A stretch of 64,000 nucleotides of DNA from Bacillota bacterium (GCA_030527285.1 JAUNBC010000004.1:5781-69780); one strand, 5' to 3'. Counted from the stretch's first letter, positions 4,229 to 61,856 are shown. The notes: a model not told the origin generated them from the letters alone. Numbers and translations: made by a program.

Positions 4229-4253
4229 TCTAAAGGGAGGAGGAGTTAATCAC

Positions 4254-4649
4254 ATGGCAGAATCTACGAAATTCTACGGCACAGGCCGGCGCAAAAACGC
4301 GATCGCCAAGGTGTGGCTGACGGCCGGTAACGGTCAGGTCACGATCAACAAAAGAGGCTTAGGCGAGTATTTCGGCAAAAAGACTCTGGAAATGATCGTC
4401 AAACAGCCGCTCGCATTGACCTCCACTTTGGATAAATATGACGTGGTGGCCAGCGTTCACGGCGGCGGCACTACCGGTCAGGCCGGCGCGGTGCGTCATG
4501 GTATCGCTCGCGCTTTGGTACAGGCGGACGCCGAATTGCGTCCCGCTTTGAAGGCCGCCGGGTTTATGACCCGCGACCCGAGAATGAAGGAAAGACGCAA
4601 ATACGGCTTGAAGAAAGCGCGCAAGGCGTCCCAGTTCTCCAAGCGTTAA
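4254..4649 (+). CDS. rpsI: 30S ribosomal protein S9
   Basis: Start [22 protein letters not shown] after GGAGGAGG. C-terminus [12 protein letters not shown]. The track ORF start at 4173 overlaps rplM and was rejected. Confidence 0.95.
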
Positions 4650-19684: not shown

Positions 19685-21586
19685 TCAGCGGACTTTGGCG
19701 GCGATCTCCTGCTTGAGCAGGGCGATGATCTCGTCGAGCGGTTTGGCTCCCAGATCGCCCTCGCCGCGTTTGCGTACGGCGGCGGTTCCGCTCTCCATCT
19801 CCTTATCGCCTAATACCAGCATATACGGCGTTTTCTCATTCTGCGCGGCGCGTATCTTGTAGCCGATCTTCTCATTGCGGCTGTCGATCTCGCAGCGGAT
19901 GCCGGCGGCGGCGAGCTGCGCTGCTATCTGCCCGGCGTATTCGTCCTGCCGGTCGGTGATGGTCAGTATTTTGACCTGCACCGGCGACAGCCACAGCGGG
20001 AAAGCGCCGGCGAAATGCTCGGTGATCACGCCGATGAAGCGCTCGACGGAGCCGAAAACGACGCGGTGTATCATCACCGGGCAATGCTTGTCGCCGTCGG
20101 CGCCGGTGAATTCCAAATCAAAGCGGCCGGGCAGCTGGTAATCGAGCTGGATAGTGCCGCATTGCCAGGTGCGGCCAAGGCTGTCGAGGATATGGAAATC
20201 GAGCTTGGGGCCATAGAACGCGCCGTCGCCGGGGTTGACGGTATATTCTTTGCCCACGCTCTCGATCGCGTCGGACAGCGCCCGGGTGGCGATATCCCAG
20301 TCTTCGACCGAGCCGATATGATCTTCGGGCATCGTAGACAGCTCGATGGTATAGGGCAGGCCGAACAGGTTATATACCTCGTCAAACAGCTGGACGATGC
20401 GCACCACTTCGCCGGTGATCTGCTCCTTGGCTAACAGTATATGCGCGTCGTCCTGAGTGAAGCAGCGCACGCGGAACATCCCATGCAGCGCGCCGGACAG
20501 CTCATGCCGATGCACGCAGCCCAGCTCGCCGTAGCGCAGCGGCAATTCGCGGTAGGAATGAGGCTCCAACTCATAAACAAGGATGCTGCCGGGGCAGTTC
20601 ATCGGTTTGATCGCGAAATCCTCCCCGTCGATCAGCGTGGTATACATATTGTCCTTGTAATGCTCCCAGTGGCCGGAGGTTTCCCAAAGGCTGCGGCGCA
20701 TGATCTGCGGCGTGGAGATCTCCACGTAATCCCATTTTTTATGCACCTCGCGCCAGTAATCGATCAGCGTATTGCGCAGTACCATACCCTTGGGCAGGAA
20801 GAAGGGCATACCCGGCGCTTCGTCGCTGAAGGCGAACAGCGACAGCTCGCGCCCCAGCTTGCGATGGTCGCGGCGCTTGGCTTCCTCGAGGTTGAACAGG
20901 TATTCGTCGAGCTGCTCGCGCGTGGGGAAGGCGGTGGCATAGATGCGCTGCAGCATTTTCTTAGAGCTGTCGCCATGCCAATAGGCTCCGGCCACGCTCA
21001 TCAGCTTGAAAGCCTTGACCATACCGGTGGCCGGCAGATGCGGGCCGGCGCACAGATCGGTGAAATCGCCCTGCGTATACAGCGAGATCACCGCGTCAGC
21101 GGGCAGATTTTCGATCAGATCGACCTTGTAGATCTCGCCCTTATCGCCGAATAGCTTCAGCGCTTCCTCGCGCGAGACTTCACGGCGCTCGAATTTGAGA
21201 TTCTGCTTGACGATCTTCTTCATCTCGGCTTCGATGGCGGCCATATCCTCGTCGGTGAAGATGTGCTCGCTGTCCAGGTCATAGTAGAAGCCGTCCTTGA
21301 TCGCCGGACCGATGCCGAACTTGGTGTCGGGGAACAGATGCTGTATCGCCTGCGCCATGATATGCGAGGAGCTGTGGCGGAAAGTATGCGCGCCGTCCTC
21401 GTCGTCAAAGCCGATAAACTCCAGCTCATCGCCTTCAGCGGGAATGTAGGTAAGCTCGCGTATTTTGCCGTTGACGCGCACCGCCAGATACTGCTTGTAT
21501 TGCTCCGGCTCCAGCGCCTTGATCAACGCGGCCGCCGGCAACGCCTCGACCTGTTGCTGTCCGTGCTTGCTGATGCTGATATTCAT
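19685..21586 (-). CDS. thrS: threonine--tRNA ligase
   Basis: 633 aa. TGS domain, editing domain (HSSSH), class II core (HRKLGRELSLF, FRHSSSH), anticodon-binding domain. RBS AAGGAGG. Confidence 0.96.
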   Translation of the reverse strand: MNISISKHGQQQVEALPAAALIKALEPEQYKQYLAVRVNGKIRELTYIPAEGDELEFIGFDDEDGAHTFRHSSSHIMAQAIQHLFPDTKFGIGPAIKDGFYYDLDSEHIFTDEDMAAIEAEMKKIVKQNLKFERREVSREEALKLFGDKGEIYKVDLIENLPADAVISLYTQGDFTDLCAGPHLPATGMVKAFKLMSVAGAYWHGDSSKKMLQRIYATAFPTREQLDEYLFNLEEAKRRDHRKLGRELSLFAFSDEAPGMPFFLPKGMVLRNTLIDYWREVHKKWDYVEISTPQIMRRSLWETSGHWEHYKDNMYTTLIDGEDFAIKPMNCPGSILVYELEPHSYRELPLRYGELGCVHRHELSGALHGMFRVRCFTQDDAHILLAKEQITGEVVRIVQLFDEVYNLFGLPYTIELSTMPEDHIGSVEDWDIATRALSDAIESVGKEYTVNPGDGAFYGPKLDFHILDSLGRTWQCGTIQLDYQLPGRFDLEFTGADGDKHCPVMIHRVVFGSVERFIGVITEHFAGAFPLWLSPVQVKILTITDRQDEYAGQIAAQLAAAGIRCEIDSRNEKIGYKIRAAQNEKTPYMLVLGDKEMESGTAAVRKRGEGDLGAKPLDEIIALLKQEIAAKVR

Positions 21587-21847
21587 ATAGACCTCCTTGC
21601 TCCCGCCAGCGGCGGAAAAAAATAAGCCTCACCCCGACACGGGATGAAGCATGGCTCCACGGTTCCACCCGAATTATACCGCCTGCGGTATCGCTCGTAT
21701 GCTCTGACGCGGCTTCACGGCGGGGGTTCGCCCCCGCGCTCACCGGTGGTAAATAACGCTTATCCTGCCGCCTTCACAGCTGCCGGCGGCTCTCTTTGAG
21801 GCATCAGACGCTATCCATGTCCGGATCATCGCTTTATTATTGAATTA
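21587..21847 (-). promoter_or_regulatory. T-box riboswitch leader (threonine, ACC specifier) with intrinsic terminator
   Basis: Minus strand, 5' to 3': AGAGA bulge (complement of 21791-21795); candidate specifier ttt-ACC-ACC-gg (complement of 21745-21750); T-box sequence AATTCGGGTGGAACCGTGGAG (complement of about 21655-21677); terminator stem (21626-21650) followed by TTATTTTTTT. Confidence 0.85.
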
Positions 21848-49743: not shown

Positions 49744-50937
49744 ATGACAAAGAGCTTTGAAGAGATCAACGAAAAGATCCGCGCAGGCAAAGCGGTAGTA
49801 GTCACCGCCGAGGAAGTCATCGGTATTGCTAAAGATATCGGCATAAAGGAAGCGGCGAGAAAAGTTGACGTAGTAACAACGGGGACGTTCGGCATCATGT
49901 GCTCCTCCGGCGCTTTTCTTAATTTCTGGCATACCAAGCCCAAGATGAAGATGCAGCATATTTATCTGGACGGCGTACCGGCGGGCGGCGGCATGGCGGC
50001 GGTCGATTGCTATATCGGCGCTACCGCTATCCCCGAGAACGACCCGGCTAACTCGCATCATCCGGGGCATTTCCGTCATGGCGGCGGCCATGTGATCGAG
50101 GATCTGATCGCCGGCCGCGCGGTGGAATTGCGCGCTACGGCCTACGGCACCGATTGCTATCCGCGCCGCAGCCTGGAGCAGACGATCACCCTGGCTGATC
50201 TGCGGCAGGCGTATATCTTCTCGCCGCGCAACAGCTATCAGAATTATAATGCCGGCGTCAACTGCTCGGATAAAACTGTTTATACATATATGGGCATACT
50301 CAAGCCGCATATGGCAAACGTCCATTATTCCTCCGCCGGACAGCTATCGCCGCTGCTCAACGACCCCTATTATCGCACGCTGGGCATTGGCAGCCGCATC
50401 TTTCTCGGCGGCGGCGAGGGTTTCATCGCCTGGGAGGGCACGCAGCATGCGCCCGACGACCCGCGCGATCAACGCGGCCTGCCGCTGGGCGGCGCCGGTA
50501 CCATCGCGGTGATCGGCGATATGAAGCAGATGGACGCGCGCTTTGTGCGCGGCGTCAGCATCACCGGTTACGGCGTATCGATGATGACCGGCATCGGCGT
50601 ACCGATACCGATACTCGATGAGGAAATGCTCTATTACACTACCGTGACCGACGCTGACATCATGGCTCCGATCTGCGATTACGGTCCGGACGGTTATCCG
50701 ACCGGCGAGCCGTGCGTGCTCGGTCATGTCAGCTATGCCGAGCTGAAAAGCGGCGAGATCGACTTCATGGGCAAAAAGATCCGCACCGCACCGCTGTCCA
50801 GCTATGCCAAGGCCAGAGAGATCGCCGCTATGCTCAAGAGCTGGATCAGCGACGGCAAATTCCTGCTCGGGCAGCCTTCGCGTACCTTGCGCAGCGCCGC
50901 CGATTATCAGCCGGGAGGTGTTTTCGATGATAAATAA
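49744..50937 (+). CDS. homocysteine biosynthesis protein, COG1900/DUF39 family
   Basis: MTKSFEEINEKIRAGKAVVVTAEEV...VDVVTTGTFGIMCSSGAFLNF is typical of DUF39. RBS AGGAGG. Confidence 0.85.
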   Translation: MTKSFEEINEKIRAGKAVVVTAEEVIGIAKDIGIKEAARKVDVVTTGTFGIMCSSGAFLNFWHTKPKMKMQHIYLDGVPAGGGMAAVDCYIGATAIPENDPANSHHPGHFRHGGGHVIEDLIAGRAVELRATAYGTDCYPRRSLEQTITLADLRQAYIFSPRNSYQNYNAGVNCSDKTVYTYMGILKPHMANVHYSSAGQLSPLLNDPYYRTLGIGSRIFLGGGEGFIAWEGTQHAPDDPRDQRGLPLGGAGTIAVIGDMKQMDARFVRGVSITGYGVSMMTGIGVPIPILDEEMLYYTTVTDADIMAPICDYGPDGYPTGEPCVLGHVSYAELKSGEIDFMGKKIRTAPLSSYAKAREIAAMLKSWISDGKFLLGQPSRTLRSAADYQPGGVFDDK

Positions 50938-51349
50938 TCAACAAGTCACCAAAAATGTGATCCTGCGCTTTTCTCCCGACGTGGTCGACCGGCCGATAGT
51001 CTATGAGCTGGTTACCGAGTATCATCTGATACCGAATATCATCAAGGCCTCGGTCAATCCCGAGCGCGAGGGCTATATCGTGCTCGGCCTGACCGGCACC
51101 GAGGATAACTTTGAGCGCGGCGTGTTCTATATGCAAGGCCTCGGCATGGAGGTGCAGCTGTTGGCTGACCGTGTCAGCTGGGACGACAACATTTGTACCC
51201 AATGCGGCGCTTGCACCGCCGTTTGTCCCGCCGGCGCGCTGTCTTTGCGGCGGCCGGAAATGGAGCTGCATTTTGACAGCGAGAAATGTATTGTTTGTCA
51301 TATGTGTATCGAGGCGTGTCCTGTTAGTGCCGTACACTTAGATTTTTAG
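50927..51349 (+). CDS. NIL-domain / 2x[4Fe-4S] ferredoxin protein (partner of COG1900)
   Basis: Start MINNQQVTKNVILRF, 11-nt overlap with the upstream gene. NIL domain, then CTQCGACTAVCP and CIVCHMCIEACP. Confidence 0.8.
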   Translation: MINNQQVTKNVILRFSPDVVDRPIVYELVTEYHLIPNIIKASVNPEREGYIVLGLTGTEDNFERGVFYMQGLGMEVQLLADRVSWDDNICTQCGACTAVCPAGALSLRRPEMELHFDSEKCIVCHMCIEACPVSAVHLDF

Positions 51350-51356
51350 CGTTCTG

Positions 51357-51374
51357 ACAAAAATAAGCGGCGCA
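51357..51374 (+). repeat. 18-nt direct repeat, copy 1 (ACAAAAATAAGCGGCGCA)
   Basis: Identical to 51483-51500. Begins 8 nt after the NIL-ferredoxin stop codon. Confidence 0.9.
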
Positions 51375-51405
51375 TAAGTTCGTCACGGCTTCCGGCGGCT
51401 GCGTC

Positions 51406-51428
51406 GGCGTATGTTTTGATACGCCTTT
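51406..51428 (+). terminator. short hairpin with T-run between the two repeat copies
   Basis: GGCGTAT-gttttg-ATACGCC followed by TTT. Confidence 0.3.
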
Positions 51429-51482
51429 GCTCGCCGCTCTCGCCGTTCCTGCTTCTGCTTGCTTCTTTTTGCCAGACTTATA

Positions 51483-51500
51483 ACAAAAATAAGCGGCGCA
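51483..51500 (+). repeat. 18-nt direct repeat, copy 2 (ACAAAAATAAGCGGCGCA)
   Basis: Identical to 51357-51374. Ends 35 nt before the UPF0280 start codon. Confidence 0.9.
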
Positions 51501-51535
51501 CAGGCGCGGCAATACCGCTATTATCCGAGGTTTGT

Positions 51536-52273
51536 ATGCAAGAGGAAAGATTTTATCGCGCCGGGTACGGCGGCGATCTTGAAAGCTATCGTCTGACCAT
51601 CGGCGAGACTGATCTGGCGATCTGTGTGCCGGAAGGCGTTTGGCATGAGCATAGCGGCAAAAAGACGGCCGACTATATCACCAATCAGCGGCGCTTATTG
51701 CAGGAGTACATAGTGCGGCATCCCGAGTTCGCCTCAAGCCATACGCCGCTGCCCGTGGATAAGGGCGCGCCGGCGGTGGCGCGCATCATGATGGTCGCCG
51801 CTAACAAGGCCGGCGTTGGACCGATGGCGGCGGTGGCGGGTACCTTTGCGCTGCTGGCCGGCCGTCTGCTCAGTTATTACAGCGACAATGTGATCGTCGA
51901 GAACGGCGGTGATATTTACCTCAAGAGCAGCCGGCCGCGTACGGTCGGCGTATATGCCGGCGACAGCCCTTTTTCCGGGCTCGTCGGCGTCGTCGTGCCG
52001 GCGGGAAAAACGCCGTGCGGCGTTTGTACCAGCTCCGGCACGGTGGGCAGCTCTTTCAGCTATGGCGTGGCCGACGCGGCTTTGATCTTTGCCGCTGATG
52101 CGCCGTTGGCCGACGCGGTAGCCACCGCCGCCGCCAATCTTGTGCATCAGCCCGGGGACGTGGAGGCCGCCGCTGACTATGCGCTCGGTATCGAGGGCGT
52201 ATACGGCGCGGTGGTGATCTGCAAGGACAAGCTGGCGATCGCCGGCGAGCTGGAATTGGTCAAGACCGCCTGA
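51536..52273 (+). CDS. UPF0280 / COG2122 (ApbE-superfamily-like) protein
   Basis: Start MQEERFYRAG after GAGG. Family motifs GVGPMAAVAG, ENGGDIY, CTSSGTVG. Confidence 0.85.
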   Translation: MQEERFYRAGYGGDLESYRLTIGETDLAICVPEGVWHEHSGKKTADYITNQRRLLQEYIVRHPEFASSHTPLPVDKGAPAVARIMMVAANKAGVGPMAAVAGTFALLAGRLLSYYSDNVIVENGGDIYLKSSRPRTVGVYAGDSPFSGLVGVVVPAGKTPCGVCTSSGTVGSSFSYGVADAALIFAADAPLADAVATAAANLVHQPGDVEAAADYALGIEGVYGAVVICKDKLAIAGELELVKTA

Positions 52274-52383: not shown

Positions 52384-53136
52384 ATGTCAGGTCATTCCAA
52401 ATGGGCGAATATCAAAAGAAAAAAGGGCGCGAACGACGCGGAGCGCGGCAAGATCTTTACCAAGATCGCCAAGGAGATACAGGTGGCGGTGCGTGCCGGC
52501 GGCCCCGACCCGGACGGCAACTTCCGGCTCAAGATGTGCATACAAAAGGCCAAAGCCAATAATATGCCGGCCGATAATATCAACCGCTGCATACAGAAAG
52601 CGGCCGGAGCAGGCACGGACGGCGCGGCGATCGAGGAGTTCTTCTATGAGGGCTACGGCGCGGGCGGCGTAGCCGTGCTCTGCGATATGATGACCGATAA
52701 CCGCACCCGCGCGGCGGCGGAAATACGCTATCTGTTCTCGCGCAATAACGGCAATCTTGGCGAGAGCGGCTGCGTATCGTATATGTTCGAGCGCAAGGGC
52801 GAGATCGCGGTGGACGCCGCCGGTGTGGATGAGGATGAGCTGATGATGGCCGCCCTTGACGCGGGCGCCGAGGATATGAGCGTCGATGAGGAGCGAGCTA
52901 CCATCGTCACCGCACCCGGCGATGTGGAGGCGGTGCAGCAGGCGCTGAGCGAGGCCGGATTCACGGTGATCGAATCGCAGGTAGTGATGTCGCCGTCCAA
53001 TACTATCGAGATCACCGATCTGGAAACGGCGGAAAAGGTGATCAAGCTGATCTCGGCATTAGAGGATAACGACGACGTGCGCGAGGTCTACGCCAATTAC
53101 GATATCGCCGACGCGATCATCGAGCAAATGGAATAA
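52384..53136 (+). CDS. yebC: YebC/PmpR family DNA-binding transcriptional regulator
   Basis: MSGHSKWANIKRKKG... 250 aa. Confidence 0.93.
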   Translation: MSGHSKWANIKRKKGANDAERGKIFTKIAKEIQVAVRAGGPDPDGNFRLKMCIQKAKANNMPADNINRCIQKAAGAGTDGAAIEEFFYEGYGAGGVAVLCDMMTDNRTRAAAEIRYLFSRNNGNLGESGCVSYMFERKGEIAVDAAGVDEDELMMAALDAGAEDMSVDEERATIVTAPGDVEAVQQALSEAGFTVIESQVVMSPSNTIEITDLETAEKVIKLISALEDNDDVREVYANYDIADAIIEQME

Positions 53137-53158
53137 ACGGTTGATCGAGCCGCAATAC

Positions 53159-53188
53159 AAAGACCTTGCAAAGCAAGGTCTTTTTTTT
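53159..53188 (+). terminator. rho-independent terminator after yebC
   Basis: GACCTTGC-aaa-GCAAGGTC followed by T8. Confidence 0.85.
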
Positions 53189-53307
53189 GTATGCGGGAGC
53201 GGGCGGCGGCGGCCATTGCCCCATTAGCAGGAATAGCCGCAGATAGAGCGAATATACCGTTATGTTCCGCGTATTTCCGGCAATTTTGACGATAGGGGAA
53301 GCGACGC

Positions 53308-53883
53308 ATGGCCGTATTGCATAATGCGCTTGACCGTTTCAGCCTGCGCGATCTATTGCTGATCGCGGTGATGGCGGCGCTGGGCGTGGCCTTGAAACCG
53401 ATCATCGTGCCGTTGGCGCATCTGGTCAGCGCGCCGCTATTGATACCGGGCGGCGCTTTGGCCGGCGGTCTGTATATGATGTGGCTGGTGGTGGCGATGG
53501 GGCTGACGCAGAAGCGCGGTACGGCTACCCTGGTCGGATTAGTGCAGGCGCTGCTGGTGACCGTCACCGGCATTGTCGGCAGTCATGGGCTGATGAGCCT
53601 GTTCAGCTATACGTTGCCCGGCGTGATCCTGGACTTGCTGCTGCTGCTGATCGGGCATCGCGTCTGCTGCCGCTATTGCACGTTTATTGCCGGCATGGCA
53701 GCCAATATCGCCGGCGCGGTCTGCGTCAATCTGATCTTTTTCCGCCTGCCGCTGATACCGCTGCTGCTATCGCTGGCGGTGGCGGCTTTTTCCGGCGGCT
53801 TGGGCGGTTTGTTAGCTTGGGAGCTGCTGCAGGCGCTGAAAAAGTATCATATCGGCTTTCATGGCGGCGCGAAGCAAGAATAG
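53308..53883 (+). CDS. ECF-transporter S (substrate-capture) component-like membrane protein, specificity unknown
   Basis: 191 aa, about 6 hydrophobic helices, YkoE/ThiW-like layout. First gene of an operon with two EcfA-type ATPases and an EcfT. Confidence 0.65.
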   Translation: MAVLHNALDRFSLRDLLLIAVMAALGVALKPIIVPLAHLVSAPLLIPGGALAGGLYMMWLVVAMGLTQKRGTATLVGLVQALLVTVTGIVGSHGLMSLFSYTLPGVILDLLLLLIGHRVCCRYCTFIAGMAANIAGAVCVNLIFFRLPLIPLLLSLAVAAFSGGLGGLLAWELLQALKKYHIGFHGGAKQE

Positions 53884-53906
53884 CGTCTGATATAAGGGAG
53901 TTTGCG

Positions 53907-54410
53907 GTGAAAACAAAGCGTATCTGGGCGATAATGATATTCTTAGCGGCGGCGATCGCGGTTCTGGCGCTGCTCAACCGGCCTGCCGTCGATACCGACG
54001 CCGAGGTGCTGTCGCTGGTGGCGGAGGGACAGGTGCTGCGCGTCTATACCTACGGCGAGCTGAAAGAGCTGCCCTGCGTCGAGGTGGAGAAGGAGATACG
54101 CTCCGCCGGCTTCAAAAGCAAGGAAGGCTTGTGGCGCGGCGTGCCGCTGCGCACGATCTTTGCCGACGCCGGTATCGACCTTAGCTCCTATAAGCAGGTG
54201 GTGACGCGCGCCGACGATAGCTTTGTTTCCGCCTTCAGCGTCGAGGAGGTGTTGGCGGATGATAATATCTTCATCGCCTACAGCTTCAACGGCCATGATA
54301 TAGGCGGCCAGGAGGATGGCGGCGACGGGCCGCTGCGCATCGTTATCAGCAAGGATATCTTCGGCACGCGCTCCACACGCTGGCTGTATCAGTTGGAGCT
54401 GCAGCGATGA
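53907..54410 (+). CDS. membrane-anchored exported protein with sulfite-oxidase/YedY-type molybdopterin-binding-domain signature (167 aa)
   Basis: GTG start 6 nt after AAGGGAG. Signal-anchor IWAIMIFLAAAIAVLALL. Domain pattern LKELPCVEVE...WRGVPLRTIFADAG...IFIAYSFNGHDI...DGPLRIVISKDIFGTRSTRWLYQLEL parallels the Oxidored_molyb consensus. Confidence 0.6.
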   Translation: MKTKRIWAIMIFLAAAIAVLALLNRPAVDTDAEVLSLVAEGQVLRVYTYGELKELPCVEVEKEIRSAGFKSKEGLWRGVPLRTIFADAGIDLSSYKQVVTRADDSFVSAFSVEEVLADDNIFIAYSFNGHDIGGQEDGGDGPLRIVISKDIFGTRSTRWLYQLELQR

Positions 54411-55177
54411 CGGCGGAACGCGAGCGCCTGCTGTCCGTTGCAGGGCTGAGCTTTGCCTATCAGCCCGAACGGCTGCTGCTGGATAATATCAGCTTTGAGC
54501 TGTCAGGCGGGCAGCTGCTGGTGCTGGCCGGTCTTTCCGGCAGCGGCAAGACCACTTTAGCGCATATACTGACCGGCATCATTCCCGCCTGCATCGCCGG
54601 GGAGCCAAGCGGCAGCGTGCGCGTGTGCGGCGAGGATATCGCCGGCAAAAAACCGGCGCAGCTGGCCGAGCGGATCGCGCTGGTGTTTCAGGACAGCGAC
54701 GCGCAGCTGATCGCCGCCACCGTTGAGGGCGAGTTGGCCTTCGGTCTGGAAAACCTCTGCGTCGCGCCGGCGGAGATACGCGAGCGGGTTGACCGCCAGC
54801 TGGCCGGTCTGGGTTTTACCGGTTTGGCCGAGCGCCATCCCGACAGCCTGTCCGGCGGGCAGAAAAAGCTGCTGGCGCTGGGCGCGGTGCTGATTTTGGA
54901 GCCGCGCGTGATCATCTTCGACGAGCCGTTCGCGCATTTGGACGAGCAGGGGCGGGAGCTGGTCAAGCGGGCGCTGATGGCCTTGCGCGAGCAGGGGCGG
55001 GGACTGCTGCTGATCGAGCATGATCTGTCGCTGGTAGATTATGCCGATAGCTGGCTGATATTGCATGAGGGGCGTATCGTGGCCGAGGATAGCCCGGCGG
55101 CCTTGCTGGAGCAGCGCGAGCGGCTGCGCGCATGGCAGCTTTGGTACGACGAGGACGACGGCGGGGAGCTGCGATGA
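54407..55177 (+). CDS. ECF/ABC transporter ATPase (dedicated module, A)
   Basis: ATGA overlap with the upstream gene. Walker A GLSGSGKTT, signature LSGGQKK, Walker B IIFDEP. Confidence 0.88.
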   Translation: MTAERERLLSVAGLSFAYQPERLLLDNISFELSGGQLLVLAGLSGSGKTTLAHILTGIIPACIAGEPSGSVRVCGEDIAGKKPAQLAERIALVFQDSDAQLIAATVEGELAFGLENLCVAPAEIRERVDRQLAGLGFTGLAERHPDSLSGGQKKLLALGAVLILEPRVIIFDEPFAHLDEQGRELVKRALMALREQGRGLLLIEHDLSLVDYADSWLILHEGRIVAEDSPAALLEQRERLRAWQLWYDEDDGGELR

Positions 55178-55809
55178 TCGAGATAGATAATATCAATTTC
55201 AGTTATCCGCGCGCCCAGCAGCCGGTTTTCACCGCTTTTTCATTATGCGTGGAAAAGGGCGGCGTGACCGCGCTCAGCGGGCCGAACGGCTGCGGTAAAA
55301 CGACATTGGCGCGGCTGATCGTCGGTTTGCTGCGCCCTTCGGCGGGGCGTATCGTCATCGACGGTACGGATATCGCGCCGCTCAATTTGTTTGAGATCGG
55401 GCAGCGCGCCGGCTATTTATTCCAAAACCCCAACCGTCAGCTGTTCAATACCTCGGTCTATGAGGAGATCGCCGTCGGCCTGCGTAATCGCGGGCTGGCC
55501 GCGGACGTTGTCGAGCGGCGGGTTGCCGAGCTGCTGGAGGATTTTTATCTCACCGCTTATCGCGACGTTTTTCCGCTGCAATTATCGCTGGGCGAGCGTC
55601 AGCGCGTGGCTTTGGCCGCGGTGCTGGCTTTGGACAGCGATTATCTGCTGCTCGACGAGCCGACCTGCGGCTTGGATATGCGTTGCCGGCGGCAGCTGGG
55701 CGAATTGCTGCTTGACCTTTGCGCGCGCCGGCAGCGGGGGCTGCTCGTGATCAGCCATGAGCGGAGCTTCATTCGCCGCTACTGCGATAGAGAGCTGGTG
55801 CTCGGATGA
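55174..55809 (+). CDS. ECF/ABC transporter ATPase (dedicated module, A')
   Basis: Start MIEIDNINFSYP, ATGA overlap. GPNGCGKTT, LSLGERQR, LLLDEP. Confidence 0.88.
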   Translation: MIEIDNINFSYPRAQQPVFTAFSLCVEKGGVTALSGPNGCGKTTLARLIVGLLRPSAGRIVIDGTDIAPLNLFEIGQRAGYLFQNPNRQLFNTSVYEEIAVGLRNRGLAADVVERRVAELLEDFYLTAYRDVFPLQLSLGERQRVALAAVLALDSDYLLLDEPTCGLDMRCRRQLGELLLDLCARRQRGLLVISHERSFIRRYCDRELVLG

Positions 55810-56540
55810 ACCTCTACCGGCGCGATGCGCGGCTGAAGCTGCTGATGCTGCTGATGATATCGGGAACGGCGATGTTCGTCGCCCGTCCGCCGCAATTGCT
55901 GGCGCTGCTGGGCTTGACGCTGCTGATACTGCTATGCGGGCGCGTCGATCCGCGGCAGACATGGCGGCAGGCACGCCGCATACTCGGCCTGCTGCTGATG
56001 CTGTTCATACTGCAATGTTTGTTCAATCGCGGCGGCGAGCCGCTGCTGGCTGCCGGCGATCTCACGCTCGTCACCAGCGAGGGTTTGCGGCTGTCCACCG
56101 TGGTCAGCCTGCGTTTGCTGATCGTGGTGCTGACGGCGCTGATCGTGCTGAACGGCCGCACCGACGATTATCTGCTGGCCTTCACCCAATGCCATATGCC
56201 GTATGAGCTGGCGTTCATGTTGATGGCGGCGCTGCGCTTCCTGCCGCTGCTGCGCGAGGAGGCGCTGGACATATACGCGGCCACGCAAATGCGCGGCGTG
56301 GATATCGCGGGCGCGCGCCTTGGGCAAAAGCTGCGCCTGTACCTGAATATGTGCCTGCCGGTGGTGGCGGGCGCGATACGCCGCAGCGAAGAGATGTCGT
56401 TGGCCATGGAGGCGCGCTGCTTCCGCATTTTGCCGCAGCGCACCGCCCTGCGCCGCCTGCGTTTTGACCGCGCCGACCGGTGGTGGCTGGCGGCCTTTTT
56501 TCTCGCTTATGCCGGGATAATCATTGCCTTCGCCGCTTGA
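55806..56540 (+). CDS. ECF transporter T component (CbiQ family), dedicated module
   Basis: ATGA overlap. Multi-TM protein with coupling motifs YAATQMRGVD and SLAMEARCF. Confidence 0.85.
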   Translation: MNLYRRDARLKLLMLLMISGTAMFVARPPQLLALLGLTLLILLCGRVDPRQTWRQARRILGLLLMLFILQCLFNRGGEPLLAAGDLTLVTSEGLRLSTVVSLRLLIVVLTALIVLNGRTDDYLLAFTQCHMPYELAFMLMAALRFLPLLREEALDIYAATQMRGVDIAGARLGQKLRLYLNMCLPVVAGAIRRSEEMSLAMEARCFRILPQRTALRRLRFDRADRWWLAAFFLAYAGIIIAFAA

Positions 56541-56565
56541 CAAGGGGCGGGCATACTATTATACT
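56537..56565 (+). promoter_or_regulatory. candidate internal sigma-A promoter for yqeC-yqeB-xdhC-selD
   Basis: TTGACA (56537-56542, overlapping the ecfT stop), 17 nt, TATACT (56560-56565). Confidence 0.5.
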
Positions 56566-56591
56566 GAAACGAGAACAGACGGGAGTACGCT

Positions 56592-57308
56592 ATGTTGCTG
56601 TCCGAGGCTTTGCAAATACCCAACGGCATAACGGCGGTGGTGGGCGGCGGTGGTAAAACCAGTCTGATCGACGCTTTGGCGCGGGAGTTATCCGCGCGGG
56701 GCAAGGTGCTGATCTATACCACCACGCATATCATGCGTCCGCGCGAGCATTTGACGATGATCGAGCCGCTGCCGGCGCATATACGCGCGGCCTTTGCTCA
56801 ACAGCAGGTGATAGTGGCGGGCATGGAGTGTGCGGACGGGCGGCTGGGCGCTTTCCCGCCTTTGGAGCGCCATCTGAGCTCGCTCGCCGATTACGTGCTG
56901 GTCGAGGCTGACGGAGCCAAGCGTTTGCCGGTCAAAGCGCCGGCCGCGCATGAGCCGGTATTGCCGGCCGATACCAGGCTGGTGATCGCCGTGGCCGGAC
57001 TGGACGCGCTGGGGCGGCGCATCGCCGATGCGGCCTTTCGCGCGCCCCTGTACGCGAGCCTGCTGCGTAAGAGTATAGACTCGGTGATAACCGCGGATGA
57101 TATAGCCACGGTATTGATGCATCCTCAGGGACAGATGAAAAACGTCAAATGCGCCGCGGCCTACGTGCTGAACAAGGCCGATGATCAACAAAGGCAGACG
57201 GCGGCGGCCGTGATCGCCGCGCGGCTGGACGCGCCGGCAGCGGTCACGGTATTGGCCGGGCAGCCGCGGTTGATCAGCTTGTGGAGGGATAGTAAATGCT
57301 TGTTTTGA
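56592..57308 (+). CDS. yqeC: selenium-dependent hydroxylase accessory protein YqeC
   Basis: ITAVVGGGGKTSLIDALAREL P-loop-like N-terminus, about 238 aa. Synteny with yqeB and selD. Confidence 0.8.
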   Translation: MLLSEALQIPNGITAVVGGGGKTSLIDALARELSARGKVLIYTTTHIMRPREHLTMIEPLPAHIRAAFAQQQVIVAGMECADGRLGAFPPLERHLSSLADYVLVEADGAKRLPVKAPAAHEPVLPADTRLVIAVAGLDALGRRIADAAFRAPLYASLLRKSIDSVITADDIATVLMHPQGQMKNVKCAAAYVLNKADDQQRQTAAAVIAARLDAPAAVTVLAGQPRLISLWRDSKCLF

Positions 57309-58096
57309 TCAAGGGAGCCGGCGATCTGGCCAGCGGCGTAGCCGTGCGGCTGCATCGCGCCGGTTATGATATCGTGATGACCGATCTGCCGCGGCCGACG
57401 GCGATACGCCGCAGCGTCGCCTTTTGCGAGGCGATTATCGACGGCAGCGCCGAGCTGGAAGGCATACGCGCCGTGCTGGCGGCGGACAGCGGCGAGGCGC
57501 GGGCTATCGTCGCGCGCGGCGAGATAGCGGTGCTGGCCGACGCCGAGGCGCTCTGCGTCGACGGGCTTGCGCCGCAGGTCGTGGTCGATGCGATATTAGC
57601 CAAACATAATCTCGGCACCTCGATCAAGGACGCGCCGCTGGTGATCGGCCTCGGCCCCGGTTTTTACGCGGGCCGTGATTGCCACGCGGTGATCGAGACG
57701 ATGCGCGGCCATGATCTGGGGCGGGTGATATGGGACGGCGCGGCTGCCGCCAATACCGGCGTACCCGGGGAGATCGCGGGCTATGCCGCCGAGCGCCTGC
57801 TGCGCACGCCGCAGTCCGGCGTATTCCGTGAGCTGGCGCGTATCGGCGATATCGTGGAGGCCGGCGCGGTGGTGGCGGAGGTGGACGGCCAGCCGGTGCG
57901 GGCGAATATCGGCGGCGTATTGCGCGGGCTGCTGCGCAGCGGCGTCAGCGTAACGGCGAACATGAAATGCGGCGACGTGGATCCGCGCGGCCGCGTTGAA
58001 TACTGTCGCAGCGTTTCCGATAAGGCGCGCGCCATCGGCGGCGGCGTGCTGGAGGCGATATTATATTTTCAAAGGAGCGGTAAAAATGAAGGATAA
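57296..58096 (+). CDS. yqeB: selenium-dependent molybdenum hydroxylase system protein, YqeB (EF2563) family
   Basis: MLVLIKGAGDLASGVAVRLHRAGYDIVMTDLPRPTAIRRSVAFCEAIIDG matches my recollection of the family N-terminus. 13-nt overlap with yqeC. Confidence 0.8.
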   Translation: MLVLIKGAGDLASGVAVRLHRAGYDIVMTDLPRPTAIRRSVAFCEAIIDGSAELEGIRAVLAADSGEARAIVARGEIAVLADAEALCVDGLAPQVVVDAILAKHNLGTSIKDAPLVIGLGPGFYAGRDCHAVIETMRGHDLGRVIWDGAAAANTGVPGEIAGYAAERLLRTPQSGVFRELARIGDIVEAGAVVAEVDGQPVRANIGGVLRGLLRSGVSVTANMKCGDVDPRGRVEYCRSVSDKARAIGGGVLEAILYFQRSGKNEG

Positions 58097-59093
58097 GGTT
58101 TTAGCGGCGGTGGCGGCGGAATTGCGCGCCGGAGGAGCCGGGTATCTATATACGCTGATCGACGGCGAGTATGCCGGCAGTAAAGCTTATTTCGGCGCTG
58201 CGCGGGTATGCAATAACGACGACCTGCTGCCTTTGTTCGAACAGCTGCGGCAAAGCCGTCCGCAGCCGGACGGCGTGATCGACAGCGTCGCCGGTCATGT
58301 CTTTTGCGAGCGCATCCAACCGCGTCCGCGCTTATGTATTTGCGGCGGCGGGCATGTATCGCTGCCCCTGGCGCAGATCGCCGATATGCTCGGCTTTGCC
58401 GTGACGGTGCTCGACGACCGCGAGGAATTCGCCAATGCGCGGCGCTTCCCGCAGGCGGAGCTGTATTGCGGCGATTTCGTCAGCGGCTTGCAAGCCTTCG
58501 GCGGCGGGAGCAATGATTATTTCGTCATTATCACCTCCGGCCATCTCCATGACCGCGCCTGTTTGGAGCAGATATTGCGCGGTAAATATGCTTATGTGGG
58601 GATGATCGGCTCCAGACCCAAGCGCAAGGCGGTATATGAGCAAATGCTGGCGCAGGGCTTTACGCAGGCGCAGTTAGATACCGTGCATTCGCCGATCGGC
58701 CTGAATATCGGCGCGGAAACTCCGGCGGAGATAGCGGTGTGCATCGCCGCCGAGATCATCGAGGTCAAATCGCGCATCGGCGGAGTCGGCTGGGAGCCGG
58801 CGCTGCTCGAGGCGCTGCAAGCGCAGCAGAAGCCGGCGGCGTTGGTGGTGATCGTCGATCAGCGCGGCTCCTCGCCGCGCGGCGTGGGCGCGCGTATGCT
58901 GGTGCGCGCCGACGGCAGCATTGCCGGCACTGTGGGCGGCGGCAGCTCCGAGGCCGAGGCGATACGCGCGGCGGTCAAGATCGCGGACGCGGGCGGCAGC
59001 GGCGTGTTCCATTGCGATATGACCAATACCTCGGCCGTGGAGCAGGGGATGGTATGCGGCGGGACGATCGACGTATTTATCGAGGCAATATGA
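58086..59093 (+). CDS. xdhC: XdhC/CoxI family molybdenum-cofactor insertion/maturation protein
   Basis: Start MKDKVLAAV, 11-nt overlap with yqeB. Rossmann segment LCICGGGHVSLPLAQIADMLGFAVTVLDDR. Canonical XdhC_CoxI motifs (GSSPRGVGARMLV...GTVGGGSSE...MVCGGTIDVFIE) at the C-terminus. Confidence 0.8.
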   Translation: MKDKVLAAVAAELRAGGAGYLYTLIDGEYAGSKAYFGAARVCNNDDLLPLFEQLRQSRPQPDGVIDSVAGHVFCERIQPRPRLCICGGGHVSLPLAQIADMLGFAVTVLDDREEFANARRFPQAELYCGDFVSGLQAFGGGSNDYFVIITSGHLHDRACLEQILRGKYAYVGMIGSRPKRKAVYEQMLAQGFTQAQLDTVHSPIGLNIGAETPAEIAVCIAAEIIEVKSRIGGVGWEPALLEALQAQQKPAALVVIVDQRGSSPRGVGARMLVRADGSIAGTVGGGSSEAEAIRAAVKIADAGGSGVFHCDMTNTSAVEQGMVCGGTIDVFIEAI

Positions 59094-59144
59094 TCAAACA
59101 GCTTGCCTGTTGGCATTGAGATTGTACGAAAGGGGGAATGCGTC

Positions 59145-60200
59145 ATGGCCGTTGACCAGGATCACCGAGAGCAGATCAAGCTGACTTCATTAGCCTCCTG
59201 CTCTGGCTGAGGAGCGAAAGTCGGCGCAGGCGCGCTGGCGCAATTATTGGAGGGCATCAGGGTACGCTATGATGAAAACCTGCTCGTCGGCTTCGATAAG
59301 TCCGACGACGCCTCGGTGTATAAGCTCAATGATGAATTAGCCATTGTGCAGACGGTGGACTTTTTCCCGCCGATCGCCGACGATCCCTATCTGTTCGGCC
59401 AGATCGCCGCGGCCAACGCATTATCGGACGTTTACGCGATGGGCGGCGAGCCCAAGCTGGCGCTGAACCTGCTGTGCTTCCCTGAGGACTTGCCGCGGCA
59501 TATCGTGCATGAGATCTTGCGCGGCGGCTATGACAAGGCCTATGAGGCCGGCGTGATCATTACCGGCGGGCACAGCATCTTTGACCCCGAGCCAAAATAC
59601 GGTCTGTGCGTGACCGGCTTCGTGCATCCGCAAAAGCTGCTGACCAACAGCGGCGCCAAGGCAGGCGACGTGCTGTATCTGACCAAGCGGCTGGGCATCG
59701 GCGTGATGACTACCGCCAACAAGGCGGGCCTGCTGTCGGCGGCGGGGCTGGAGACGGCGATGACGCAGATGGCGACGCTGAACAAGGCGGCGCGTGACGT
59801 GCTGGTCAAATACCGCGTCCACGCCGTCACCGACGTTACCGGCTTCTCGCTGCTCGGTCACGCTTTGGAGATGGCCGCCGGCAGCAAGGCGGCGATCGAG
59901 ATCGACACGGCGGCGGTGGATATCATCCCCGAGGCGCTGGAGCACGCGGCGGCGGGGCTGCTGCCGGGCGGTATGTACCGCAACCGCGATTTTGCCGAGG
60001 CGCAGGTCGAGGCCGGAGACGTGGGGCAGCTGCTTTGCGACATGCTCTATGATCCGCAGACCTCGGGCGGGCTGCTGATTGCCGTGGACGCGGGCGACGC
60101 CGACGCGATGGGAGCGGAATTAGCGGGCGCGGTCCCGTCGGCGCAGCGTATCGGGCGGGTGATCGAGTATAACGGCGGCAAGCGGGTATTCCTCAAGTAA
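59145..60200 (+). CDS. selD: selenide, water dikinase (selenophosphate synthetase) with in-frame UGA selenocysteine at codon 22
   Basis: ATG 59145, 7 nt after AAGGGGGA. MAVDQDHREQIKLTSLASCSG-U-GAKVGAGALAQLLEGIRVRYDENLLVGFD... restores the SelD glycine-rich active-site loop. The only in-frame stop before 60198 is TGA 59208-59210. The track ORF starts artificially at TTG 59247. Confidence 0.9.
59208..59210 (+). other. UGA selenocysteine recoding codon in selD
   Basis: The TGA aligns with the catalytic Cys/Sec position (G-[CU]-G-x-K) of SelD. The reading frame is continuous across it. Confidence 0.8.
59224..59241 (+). promoter_or_regulatory. candidate SECIS-like GC-rich hairpin downstream of the UGA
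   Basis: Imperfect palindrome GCGCAGGCGCGCTGGCGC beginning 14 nt after the UGA. Not folded computationally. Confidence 0.25.
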
Positions 60201-60243
60201 AAACGGTTGAAAACCGTTTATCCCGACGCCAATCAATACAGTA

Positions 60244-60284
60244 AAAAACTGCCCTTAGGCGATACGCCTAAGGGCAGTTTTTTT
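60244..60284. terminator. bidirectional rho-independent terminator between selD and pepD
   Basis: AAAAA-CTGCCCTTAGGCG-ata-CGCCTAAGGGCAG-TTTTTTT. Confidence 0.85.
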
Positions 60285-60296
60285 ACCGGCTGGTTT

Positions 60297-61856
60297 TCAG
60301 ATATTGCTCAGCGTGGTTTGCAGCAGCTGTACGGTTTTGCCGATCGAGGACAGAGTCACGCTTTCCAGCGGCGAATGAGTGCCGCTGATGCTCGGGCCGA
60401 TGCTGATCATTTGCAGCGCGCTGTTCTTGGCGGCAAAAAAGCCTAACTCGCTGCCGCCATAGGCGACCAGCGTTTGCATCTGCTCGCCATAGAGGTCGGC
60501 ATAGACCTCGGCGGTGATCAACTGCAGCTGATTATCGGCGGCGGCCGGCCAGACCGGTATCGCGTCGCTGCTTACGGCGGTAAGCAGGCATTGCTCGGCC
60601 AGACGCTGCTGGCGCAGCAGCGCTTGGCCGAGCAGCAGCGTATGCGAGCTGCGCAGATTGCGGTCAAAGCCGGCCTGCGTGGCGCTGATCTGTACGTTAT
60701 ACAAGGTGGCGGAATTTACCAGCCCGTCGGCGGCGGAAACGCTTTGCTGCCCCTCGGGCGACAGCAGGATGAAGTTGAGCAGGTTATTACGCTCGCTGGT
60801 GCTCATTACCAGCGACGGCAGCTCGACCTTCTCATAGCTGACGGTGATACCCGGCTCGCTGGCGGCGTAGGTCAGCGGTAATTGCTCCTGATACTGCGAG
60901 ATCTGATGCGAGAGTATCAATTCCTCGGCCGCGTCGATGACGATCAACGCGCTGGCCGTATGGGGCGTGGTGTTAGGCTCGCTGCCGCCTTGCAGCTGAG
61001 CCAGCTCGAACAGTATATTCTGCGATTGCAGATCGGCGAGGATATTGGCCAGAAGCAGTACGGCGTTGAGCCGGCTCTCGCTGCTCTCGCTGGTGGCGTA
61101 GCCGCCCTGTAAGCCGCCGACGCTGATACGCACGGCGGTGTTCTTCTTCGGCGCGGTCGGGTTGAGCGCGGCGGTGGCGGTCAGAGTTTGCTCCGCCGAT
61201 GCGCCGATGGTCAGCGTATCGTCGGATTTGGCGTCGAGGTTGATCACGTAAGTAACGTCGCTGAGGCGTTCGGCAGAAATGGCGGCCGCGCCGCTCATAT
61301 CGCCTTCGCCATTGCTGGTGAAGATCAGGCGCAGCGGGCCATGCGGCAGCTCGGCGCGTAGTAAATACAGAGCCATCGCCATGCCGACGCCGTTATCCGC
61401 GCCGAGGCTGGTATTGTCCGCGCTCAGGGTCTCGCCGTCATTGAGCAGGGTGACGGCGTCGGTCAGCGGGTCGTATTCCACGCCCTCGGCAGCGACGCAG
61501 AACATATCCAGATGCGTATGGATAACGGTGAGCGGGCTGTCCGCATATTCGGCGCTGGCCGGTATATCGACGATGATATTATGCAGCGCGTCGCGCTGCG
61601 GCTGATAGCCCAGATCGAGCAGCCGCTGACATATATAGTCGGCGATAGCCTGCTCATTGCCGCTGCTGCGCGGGATGGCGGAGATGGCGGTGAATTCCTC
61701 GACGATCATTTCGACGGCGGCGGCTATCTCTTCGTCATTGAGCGCGCTGTCGGTATCGACCTGGACGGTCAGCTCCGGCGGCGCGGTACAGCCGCAAAGC
61801 AGCGTCAGCAGCAGTATTGTTATTATGGCGATGGTCAGCAGTTTTTTCTTATACAT
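60297..61856 (-). CDS. pepD: aminoacyl-histidine dipeptidase (PepD, M20C) with lipoprotein-type signal peptide
   Basis: M20 motifs HTHLDMFCV and GADNGVGMAMAL. N-terminus MYKKKLLTIAIITILLLTLLCGCTAPP. RBS AGGAG. Confidence 0.85.
   Translation of the reverse strand: MYKKKLLTIAIITILLLTLLCGCTAPPELTVQVDTDSALNDEEIAAAVEMIVEEFTAISAIPRSSGNEQAIADYICQRLLDLGYQPQRDALHNIIVDIPASAEYADSPLTVIHTHLDMFCVAAEGVEYDPLTDAVTLLNDGETLSADNTSLGADNGVGMAMALYLLRAELPHGPLRLIFTSNGEGDMSGAAAISAERLSDVTYVINLDAKSDDTLTIGASAEQTLTATAALNPTAPKKNTAVRISVGGLQGGYATSESSESRLNAVLLLANILADLQSQNILFELAQLQGGSEPNTTPHTASALIVIDAAEELILSHQISQYQEQLPLTYAASEPGITVSYEKVELPSLVMSTSERNNLLNFILLSPEGQQSVSAADGLVNSATLYNVQISATQAGFDRNLRSSHTLLLGQALLRQQRLAEQCLLTAVSSDAIPVWPAAADNQLQLITAEVYADLYGEQMQTLVAYGGSELGFFAAKNSALQMISIGPSISGTHSPLESVTLSSIGKTVQLLQTTLSNI

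Follow-up and report, generated by a model that had tools for sequence, protein, structure and literature searches.

The gene cluster and its boundaries

Within a 64,000-nucleotide stretch of DNA from a Bacillota bacterium (GCA_030527285.1 JAUNBC010000004.1:5781-69780), the window of this study, positions 53308-60200 hold nine genes, all on the plus strand, which the listing of open reading frames (ORFs) and family scans place between two strong terminators (Table 1). Coordinates are positions in the window, and identifiers such as L001 denote comparison loci. The first five genes encode an energy-coupling factor (ECF) transporter together with a membrane-anchored extracytoplasmic protein of the sulfite oxidase (SUOX) fold, and the last four, yqeC-yqeB-xdhC-selD, are accessory genes of selenium-dependent molybdenum hydroxylases. 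A sequence-only reading of this DNA had seen in the two halves a single candidate uptake-plus-maturation supermodule. Their distribution in other genomes is best read as that of two independent modules which happen to be juxtaposed here. The account that we hold with rather more belief than doubt adds that the ECF module is an uptake system of the molybdenum/tungsten (Mo/W) cofactor regulon, and that what it takes up is most likely a cofactor of pterin type or a precursor of one.

Table 1. Genes and other features at and around the cluster, in order of position
Feature	Position	Strand	Evidence
Intrinsic terminator of upstream YebC-like gene (5′ cluster boundary)	53159..53190	+	11 pairs and T-run; z -6.2
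ECF S component, YkoE-like fold	53308..53883	+	PF09819, 52 bits; AlphaFold2 (AF2) model
12-pair hairpin then U5 (CUUUUU), within last 130 nt of S gene	53758..53785	+	-23.8 kcal/mol, z -2.3
Membrane-anchored extracytoplasmic SUOX/PruR-like protein, 167 aa	53907..54410	+	PF00174 (Oxidored_molyb), E 1.4e-12
ECF ATPase A1 (EcfA1), dedicated (group I) type	54407..55177	+	TIGR04520 E 7e-56, below equivalog cut-off; PF00005
ECF ATPase A2 (EcfA2)	55174..55809	+	TIGR04520 E 9e-51, below equivalog cut-off; PF00005
ECF T component (EcfT), CbiQ family, extra C-terminal transmembrane helix	55806..56540	+	PF02361, 99.5 bits
Sigma-70-like promoter TTGACA-17-TATACT, 11/12 matches	56537..56565	+	-35 hexamer overlaps EcfT stop codon
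YqeC, P-loop accessory protein of selenium-dependent molybdenum hydroxylases	56592..57308	+	TIGR03172, 194 bits (cut-off 73); PF19842
YqeB family, short form without XdhC-like N-terminal half	57296..58096	+	TIGR03309, 358 bits (cut-off 220)
XdhC-family molybdenum cofactor chaperone/insertion factor	58086..59093	+	NF045664, 307 bits (cut-off 350); PF13478, PF02625
SelD selenophosphate synthetase, in-frame TGA (selenocysteine)	59145..60200	+	TIGR00476, 364 bits on part 3′ of TGA
Strong bidirectional intrinsic terminator, 3′ cluster end	60249..60284	.	-33.2 kcal/mol, z -8.2; A-run and T-run flanks

The genes of each half overlap by 4–13 nucleotides, the exceptions being a gap of 23 nucleotides between the S and SUOX-like genes and one of 51 nucleotides 5′ of selD; in the ECF half the successive overlaps from the SUOX-like gene through EcfA1 and EcfA2 to EcfT are of 4 nucleotides. 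The SUOX-like gene starts at GVG and has the ribosome-binding site AAGGGAG. For selD the start is at 59145 and not at 59247.

That the nine co-directional genes lack an internal terminator is right as regards the gene set and the absence of a strong terminator between 53190 and 60249; it needs qualifying for a moderate hairpin near the end of the S gene. This hairpin is far weaker than both flanking terminators and could be a weak internal attenuator, setting expression of the downstream ECF genes against that of S, or a coincidence of coding sequence. The remaining terminator-like matches are at chance level (18, with 11.6 ± 2.9 in shuffles). The strong bidirectional terminator said to close the cluster is indeed there.

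The junction between the halves (56541-56591) had been described as a 51-nucleotide gap with a possible internal promoter, and both the length and the promoter hold. A GGGAG ribosome-binding site lies 3′ of the promoter and ahead of yqeC. We estimate that the 14 kb scanned would hold some 0.03 sites this good, so a chance match is unlikely. So near-consensus a promoter in the gap allows the yqeC half to be transcribed by itself, and read-through into it from the ECF half is possible. The junction has no significant secondary structure (fold z -0.55).

Conservation of the two halves

An alignment of S-component homologues led to 206 genomes; the analysis used 80 species-level loci from these, each extended by as much as 10 kb to either side. 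Their S components are 49–77% identical to that of the window, and the loci were queried by tblastn with the nine window proteins. The SUOX-like gene and those for EcfA1, EcfA2 and EcfT adjoin the S gene in nearly all of them. YqeB and SelD are within 10 kb of S in none of the 80, while a YqeC-like gene is present in one and XdhC-like genes in four. The reverse search, with window YqeB as query against metagenome contigs, gave 41 loci no shorter than 5 kb, with YqeC adjacent in 35, XdhC in 25 and SelD in 18; neither the S component nor the SUOX-like protein adjoins YqeB in any.

The closest relatives of the two halves keep them apart. The nearest YqeB relatives (61–64% identity) retain the exact order yqeC-yqeB-xdhC-selD without a transporter; the four genes stand without ECF genes in L083, L085, L086, L087 and L159, and L149 has the same order as far as xdhC, where the locus ends. 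On the other side, among the S relatives that share this five-gene minimum the nearest is L163 (73% identity), where a gene for NAD(P)HX dehydratase comes next; this gene, unannotated, had been a candidate for YqeC until its identity ruled that out. The adjacency of both halves was also not found in four close metagenome relatives.

The two halves are conserved separately, each as a unit, and to the extent of these samples their adjacency is peculiar to this genome. The neighbourhood check that had been proposed for the supermodule has thus gone against its conservation. The counts from both directions, along with the promoter that the junction has of its own, are what make independence of the modules the best reading.

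The ECF transporter and its S component

The first gene product has the six-helix S fold, and two ATP-binding cassette (ABC) ATPases and a CbiQ-family T component are encoded in its operon, which marks the system as a group I ECF transporter. For both ATPases the ECF ATPase models are the best NCBIfam matches. A separate housekeeping EcfA1A2T set is encoded in the window in a ribosomal-protein neighbourhood (340-2823, plus strand; two ABC ATPases at 340-2024 and CbiQ/EcfT at 2017-2823), so the ECF system at 53–56 kb is a second, dedicated one. The ORF that follows the housekeeping set (2823-3617, plus strand) is probably TruA, from its PseudoU_synth_1 match, and RpsI is encoded at about 4250-4649.

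The AF2 model of the S component has a predicted local distance difference test score (pLDDT) of 91. In a Foldseek comparison its best PDB match is YkoE (5EDL; template modelling (TM) score 0.76, 16% identity), followed by RibU, BioY and HmpT. A profile search of PDB sequences gave no match, YkoE included, and only the fold comparison found it. His38, His93, His117 and the motif C120-C121-x-x-C124 are invariant in a 24-sequence alignment of the family. To our knowledge YkoE has not been reported to share them. Judged from their invariance, these residues could possibly contact a thiophilic metal centre.

The system is like the YkoEDC-type group I transporters, of which B. subtilis YkoE is a component, in its S fold and in having S, two ATPases and T in one operon. 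It differs in the low identity of its S component, the His/Cys-rich conserved motif, an obligatory extracytoplasmic SUOX-like partner and, where an RNA switch is present, in that switch being a riboswitch for the molybdenum or tungsten cofactor (Moco/Tuco) and not one for thiamine pyrophosphate. Extra extracytoplasmic or membrane subunits beside S are well established in the group I systems CbiMNQO and NikMNQO (the latter with NikK/NikL). Their S components are of the CbiM/NikM family, however, whereas the one here is YkoE-like, and the accessory protein here is a domain of a pterin-binding fold and not CbiN or NikN.

The S family is a narrow one, with 312 clusters at 50% identity among 1.84 billion representatives. 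Its hosts are nearly all strictly anaerobic Clostridia (Syntrophomonadaceae, Peptococcaceae, Anaerovoracaceae, Oscillospiraceae and others), with a few Thermoleophilia. We regard it as a previously undescribed group I ECF family, whose accessory subunit and regulon are new and whose class of substrate probably is too.

A SUOX-like partner without the molybdenum cysteine

The second gene product had been described as an exported subunit resembling a Moco domain, and the PF00174 match, SUOX/PruR fold and membrane anchor agree with this. Its AF2 model, from a 39-sequence alignment, has a pLDDT of 91.7 and consists of an N-terminal helix and a compact alpha/beta domain. Foldseek matches are to SorA (1e-7), PruR 7KOM (6e-7), YedY (1e-6) and sulfite oxidase (1e-6), the highest target coverage being that of the PruR proteins 7KOM, 7KOS and 7RKB, with target TM scores of 0.67–0.75. 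A profile search of PDB sequences agrees with the SUOX/PruR fold (SorA, E 1.8e-7). A hidden Markov model of the family finds 205 SUOX-like domains in 179 proteins of the 80 loci.

The position of the Mo ligand, which we take to be given by its spacing to the W/F-x-G-x-P-L motif of YedY, is occupied by Ser64 in the window protein and by Ser or Thr in 60 of 62 orthologues. A conserved Cys is found there in no paralogue family, and any Cys at all within the 9-residue segment in just 6 of the 205 domains. As the Mo-ligand Cys is not conserved, the SUOX-like proteins are not canonical molybdoenzymes, despite their name in databases, though features of a pterin-binding site are kept. With this recognised, the name 'molybdopterin-dependent oxidoreductase' that annotation routinely gives to these small proteins would be corrected. 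SorA, YedY/MsrP and sulfite oxidase, the Mo enzymes of the SUOX fold, are the best sequence and structure matches of the accessory protein, yet it has neither the Mo-coordinating Cys, nor a dimerisation or heme domain, nor a twin-arginine signal.

All 205 domains have Asp102, and either Tyr or Phe at position 104; Phe150 is conserved in the orthologues. The motif D102-x-Y/F104 resembles the N102-x-Y104 pterin contacts of PruR (PMC11194511), an equivalence suggested by the motif and not by superposition. In A. tumefaciens, PruR contacts its pterin through N102, Y104 and W160; it is a proteobacterial periplasmic protein that binds pterins other than Moco and has no Mo cysteine (PMC11194511). The likeness to PruR (7KOM, 7KOS, 7KOU, 7RKB; PMC11194511) extends to an exported, stand-alone, minimal SUOX fold of about 140–170 residues without the Mo cysteine and to a D/N-x-Y motif at the pterin site. 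The differences are that the window protein has Ser for the Pro-Trp motif of PruR, that a hairpin truncated in PruR is seemingly full-length in the model (strands 56-62 and 70-78), and that the protein is anchored by a transmembrane segment in a Gram-positive host, its kind being known here from Clostridia and not from Proteobacteria. The partner differs also: here it is always the ECF S component with the ECF module, for PruR it is DcpA, an enzyme of cyclic di-GMP.

Some loci encode S and SUOX-like domains in a single polypeptide, the SUOX-like domain being C-terminal (L058/L059 10001-11116; proteins P0051, P0166, P0167 and P0172). Such fusions argue for physical partnership of the two proteins. 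The extracytoplasmic SUOX-like partner may serve as a binding protein for the ECF transporter.

Moco/Tuco riboswitches ahead of orthologous operons

Rfam scans revealed the Moco riboswitch (RF01055) upstream of the operon in L001, L036 (in tandem) and L056. Two covariance models built from these first hits and run over the 80 loci and the window brought the number to 21 aptamers in 18 of the 80 loci, all on the operon strand and directly 5′ of the gene that opens the operon. Upstream sequence is included in 57 loci, and 17 of these have the switch. Nine of the aptamers are re-confirmed by the model of Rfam itself, at 52–78 bits (gathering score 36). L044 has, in this order, a terminator, a perfect TTGACA-17-TATAAT promoter, the aptamer and the S gene, and in L036 a terminator follows the first aptamer. 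A second Moco riboswitch of L044 (20472-20561, plus strand), cut by the end of the locus, is some 10 kb downstream of the ECF operon. In the window a riboswitch or other RNA element was sought upstream of the S gene and in the junction, and nothing was found.

The P3 stem is missing in about 16 of the 21 aptamers. Regulski et al. 2008 (PMC2408646) correlated the P3-less variant of Moco RNA with tungsten-cofactor metabolism. In Syntrophomonas wolfei they noted RNAs of this P3-less kind ahead of 'putative sulphite oxidase' genes and treated them as unexplained exceptions (PMC2408646). These genes are probably members of the ECF-linked family described here, which would explain the 2008 exception.

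The importers ModABC, TupABC and WtpABC also occur under Moco riboswitches, and the ECF system has in common with them the regulon type (RF01055) and the presumed purpose of Mo/W-cofactor supply (PMC2408646). They are, however, type I ABC importers with a classical solute-binding protein, whereas the system here is an ECF (type III) one; ModAB-like genes adjoin it in three loci.

In L036 (3426-15401) and L042 (6957-15416), tandem P3-less Moco/Tuco riboswitches head a long operon with a RIO/APH-like kinase as first gene. In the L036 operon a type II ABC importer (FecCD, ATPase and Peripla_BP_2) precedes the FMN-binding, SUOX-like and ECF genes. In L047 (14313-15525, minus strand), which is from a Lachnospiraceae metagenome-assembled genome, a tandem pair of ROOL RNAs (258 and 219 bits) is located a few kb downstream of the ECF operon.

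Genes that accompany the ECF operon

When the ORFs of the 80 loci were called and clustered and the recurrent clusters annotated, the five-gene ECF module of the window proved to be a minimal version of the family. Fuller operons encode further exported proteins in which the SUOX-like domain occurs once or several times, in some of them together with SLH or fn3 modules for the cell wall. In 30 of the 80 loci there is an extracellular type I phosphodiesterase/nucleotide pyrophosphatase (PF01663), and in 17 loci the extra C-terminal helix of EcfT carries an extracellular domain like purple acid phosphatase (a CbiQ and Metallophos fusion).

MobB with an Fe-S domain is encoded in 28 of the loci, mostly straight 3′ of EcfT. 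Besides XdhC (in one or a few loci of the type for aldehyde oxidoreductase maturation), ModAB-like proteins occur in three loci and a fusion of a MocA/DVU1551-like nucleotidyltransferase to a histidine phosphatase in one. Since a single-copy gene is by our estimate expected within 10 kb of a random point in less than about 1% of loci, the ECF module is strongly enriched for neighbours that handle Moco at a late stage.

Other neighbours are NTPase_1 (18 loci), DUF364/DUF4213 (9), a RIO/APH-like kinase (10), a methyltransferase (9) and FMN-binding proteins (10); Crp-type regulators also recur. CobW/COG0523-type GTPases (L001), the FecCD/Peripla_BP_2 importer and a fusion of a NapH-like polyferredoxin to an FMN-binding domain are found in few loci. 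An FMN_bind::SUOX-like fusion adjoins NapH-like polyferredoxin::FMN_bind inside a riboswitch-controlled operon at L061 6715-9467, and also in L066 and L067. Pairs of MotA/ExbB-like and DUF2149 proteins with large SLH/fn3 surface proteins are present in 18 of the 80 loci (L004, L012, L013, L018, L029, L033, L037 and others), and might be an energised surface-capture apparatus in Gram-positive cells.

The selenium module

That the downstream four genes are the accessory set of the labile-selenium hydroxylases is borne out by the scores of YqeC, YqeB and SelD, all above curated cut-offs. The set was defined as YqeB, YqeC and SelD, with XdhC and YgfJ (Haft & Self 2008, PMC2276186), and the window yqeC-yqeB-xdhC-selD is a clear member, its order kept in the closest relatives. 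The set contains no transporter, either in that paper or in the 41 YqeB loci here. Nor, as the sequence-only reading had stated, is one of this kind named for the pathway in the yqeB/yqeC/selD literature examined. For the selenium-hydroxylase field the outcome is negative but useful: the transporter is no conserved part of the pathway.

Window XdhC is nearest to the subtype for aldehyde oxidoreductase maturation. Window SelD differs from most of its relatives in being a selenoprotein. The in-frame TGA (59208-59210) aligns with the catalytic Cys, with C-S-G-U-G-A-K in the window and C-A-G-C-G-A-K in 20 of 24 related SelDs that adjoin yqeB. As a candidate SECIS element, a GC-rich 8-pair hairpin begins 9 nucleotides 3′ of the UGA; it is no better than shuffles (z -0.9). 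No molybdenum hydroxylase of the xanthine dehydrogenase family was seen among the larger ORFs of the window, for which 25 of 35 families were listed, and the contig extends past the window.

Two divergent Moco riboswitches are present at L157 1446-1793, the copy on the plus strand being about 680 nucleotides upstream of yqeC-yqeB-xdhC. Both modules can therefore sit in the same type of regulon, in different organisms. YqeC was also considered as the equivalent of the MobB-FeS that follows EcfT elsewhere. BLASTP and hhalign align only the Walker A region of the two (probability 33%), and the likeness of occupying the same slot is positional only.

What the transporter may carry

The earlier proposal that the transporter serves a Mo/pterin cofactor pathway survives in a general form. 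The riboswitches of 18 of the 80 loci, the MobB, XdhC, MocA and ModAB neighbours and the pterin-binding fold of the accessory protein point to the Mo/W cofactor at large; a role specific to selenium is not indicated. This evidence is independent of, and stronger than, the synteny from which the proposal came. The transporter is probably an importer that supplies the Mo/W-cofactor pathway, its direction and substrate being what we infer from this context. A substrate of pterin type is favoured because the S fold is that of organic-vitamin transporters and the accessory fold binds pterins, because an extracellular pyrophosphatase or phosphatase followed by a cytoplasmic kinase and nucleotidyltransferase mirrors vitamin salvage, and because the neighbours are finishing and insertion factors and not biosynthetic enzymes of the Moa/Moe kind.

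Import could proceed as follows. The membrane-anchored, Cys-less SUOX/PruR-type domain would capture outside the cell a pterin-type compound related to the Mo/W cofactor, candidates being molybdopterin (MPT), Moco/Tuco or a dephosphorylated or nucleotide-stripped derivative. Where the operons are fuller, wall-bound multi-SUOX proteins would do the first capture, and the extracellular nucleotide pyrophosphatase/phosphodiesterase and the EcfT-fused phosphatase would trim what is captured. The compound would then be handed over to the YkoE-fold S component, whose His/Cys-rich motif may touch the metal-dithiolene end, and imported by the EcfA1A2T motor. In the cytoplasm, finishing proteins would reactivate and insert it: XdhC, YqeC, YqeB and SelD in this genome, and a RIO/APH-like kinase, MobB-FeS, a MocA-like transferase and XdhC elsewhere. 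A bolder form of this, in which the family is the first bacterial salvage uptake for the Mo/W cofactor or its pterin moiety, with a Cys-less domain of SUOX descent turned into the capture protein of an ECF transporter, extracellular trimming, intracellular re-phosphorylation and re-maturation and feedback by Moco/Tuco riboswitches, we put forward tentatively, with more doubt than belief.

Several observations weigh against uptake of a pterin-type compound. The window has no RF01055, whether at the gathering threshold, at E up to 1 over 52900-60500 or by the covariance models built here. Its copy of the operon also has no MobB gene or phosphoesterase, the link being drawn from orthologues at the identities given above. 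MoaC is encoded in the window (4733-5221, plus strand; motifs LIPMCHPL and GVEIEALT), just 3′ of rpsI and with no Moco riboswitch ahead. The genome thus has at least part of de novo molybdopterin synthesis and is not obviously a cofactor auxotroph, so that salvage would supplement de novo synthesis and not replace it. Moco is chemically labile, and we know of no bacterial importer of Moco or MPT. The FMN-binding and NapH-like partners of the L061 type suggest an extracytoplasmic redox or electron-transfer function, which plain uptake does not explain. Furthermore the His/Cys-rich motif of S, the CobW/COG0523 GTPases (L001) and the DUF364 'metal chelation' neighbours suit a metal substrate equally.

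Import of the metal itself, as molybdate, tungstate or the thio-forms common in sulfidic habitats, is the main competitor and, while less probable, has to be taken seriously. The SUOX-like domain would then be an oxyanion-loading accessory like CbiN or NikK/L, and the Cys/His motif of S, with its invariant His38, His93, His117 and three Cys, a metal site. Moco riboswitches classically control Mo/W transporters (PMC2408646), and a regulon survey names for the Moco class only 'Molybdenum & tungsten transporters' and no cofactor uptake (PMC3766115). The prevalence of the P3-less variant, tied to the tungsten cofactor by Regulski et al., fits import of the metal, as do the CobW-type GTPase and the DUF364 'heavy-metal chelation' neighbours; extra extracytoplasmic subunits are, as is well established, typical of metal-type ECF systems. 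Yet the S fold is that of the organic-vitamin component YkoE and not of CbiM/NikM, and the SUOX fold is a pterin-binding one. ModAB-like ABC genes beside the system in three loci would be redundant, and oxyanion import leaves the extracellular nucleotide pyrophosphatase, the phosphatase and the small-molecule kinase without a role. Transport in the outward direction, with Moco/Tuco or MPT delivered across the membrane to Sec-exported SUOX-like extracytoplasmic redox enzymes, is improbable. It would have a parallel in the ECF-dependent secretion of FAD for extracytosolic flavinylation in Listeria. The many exported SUOX-like paralogues, some fused to FMN-binding domains and near NapH-like polyferredoxin-FMN proteins, would suit it; the window protein, having no twin-arginine motif, would be exported unfolded and cofactor-free, and cytoplasmic MobB, XdhC and MocA-like proteins could prepare the cofactor. 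Regulski et al. took such genes to be Moco-using sulfite oxidases (PMC2408646). What makes the outward role less likely is that the exported SUOX-like proteins are without the conserved Mo-ligand Cys that defines SUOX enzymes, in every paralogue family represented among the 205 domains. Moreover the minimal five-gene version has only a small anchored domain and no redox partner, extracellular phosphodiesterases suit scavenging better than assembly, and ECF transporters are, as a rule, importers.

Two further readings carry very little probability. According to one, the earlier supermodule, the ECF genes and yqeC-yqeB-xdhC-selD work as one unit, in which the transporter specifically provides the pathway of the selenium-dependent molybdenum hydroxylases with, say, a selenium species. 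Co-transcription by read-through of the nine co-directional genes is possible, with no strong terminator in the way, the Mo-cofactor theme runs through both halves, and a Moco riboswitch precedes yqeC-yqeB in one other locus (L157). The neighbourhood counts (80 S loci, 41 YqeB loci and four close metagenome relatives, all without the adjacency) largely refute it nonetheless. The junction has its 11/12 promoter, and the family is seen with MobB, XdhC and MocA and never with YqeB or SelD, a link to the Mo/W cofactor generally and not to selenium. The other, just as improbable, is uptake or sensing of a non-Moco pterin of the folate branch (neopterin, monapterin or similar), of the sort that PruR binds, the link to Moco then being indirect. 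The accessory domain is PruR-sized, Cys-less like PruR and best covers PruR as a target; pterins are plentiful outside cells and have no known transporter (PMC13259868). Control, however, is by Moco/Tuco and not by tetrahydrofolate riboswitches, the neighbours are MobB, XdhC and MocA-like and not folate genes, and the apparently full-length beta-hairpin of the model and the Ser that replaces the Pro-Trp motif set the domain apart from PruR.

A pterin-type substrate for a Mo/W-cofactor-regulon importer, the reading preferred here, would have consequences beyond the family. Mo/W enzymes drive formate, aldehyde, purine and sulfur metabolism in anaerobes. The supply routes for Mo/W known to us are only the oxyanion ABC importers and de novo pterin synthesis. 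A riboswitch-controlled ECF transporter with an accessory protein of a pterin-binding fold would add a new entry point to the pathway, and might show intercellular exchange of the cofactor or a pterin, as is the case for B12, thiamine and queuosine precursors. Were the salvage form to be true, Moco/Tuco would be a shared, vitamin-like commodity among the strict anaerobes of gut, digester and syntrophic communities. According to a 2026 review, bacteria have no known pterin transporter besides folate carriers (PMC13259868). Full-text searches, with most subscription journals outside their coverage, gave nothing relevant on an ECF transporter linked to Moco, molybdopterin or tungstate, nor on flavinylation systems with SUOX domains.

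Other features of the window

Upstream of the cluster, at 49744-52273 (plus strand), is a gene for sulfur incorporation in homocysteine biosynthesis (PF01837 HcyBio, E 4.5e-152), and 3′ of it are a gene for a small protein that has two CxxCxxCxxxCP ferredoxin motifs and then another ORF. The arrangement is reminiscent of the homocysteine route of methanogen type. A T-box leader (95 bits) at 21637-21838 on the minus strand is upstream of a 633-aa ORF (19685-21586), which is probably the class II aminoacyl-tRNA synthetase match (PF00587) of the pooled scan.

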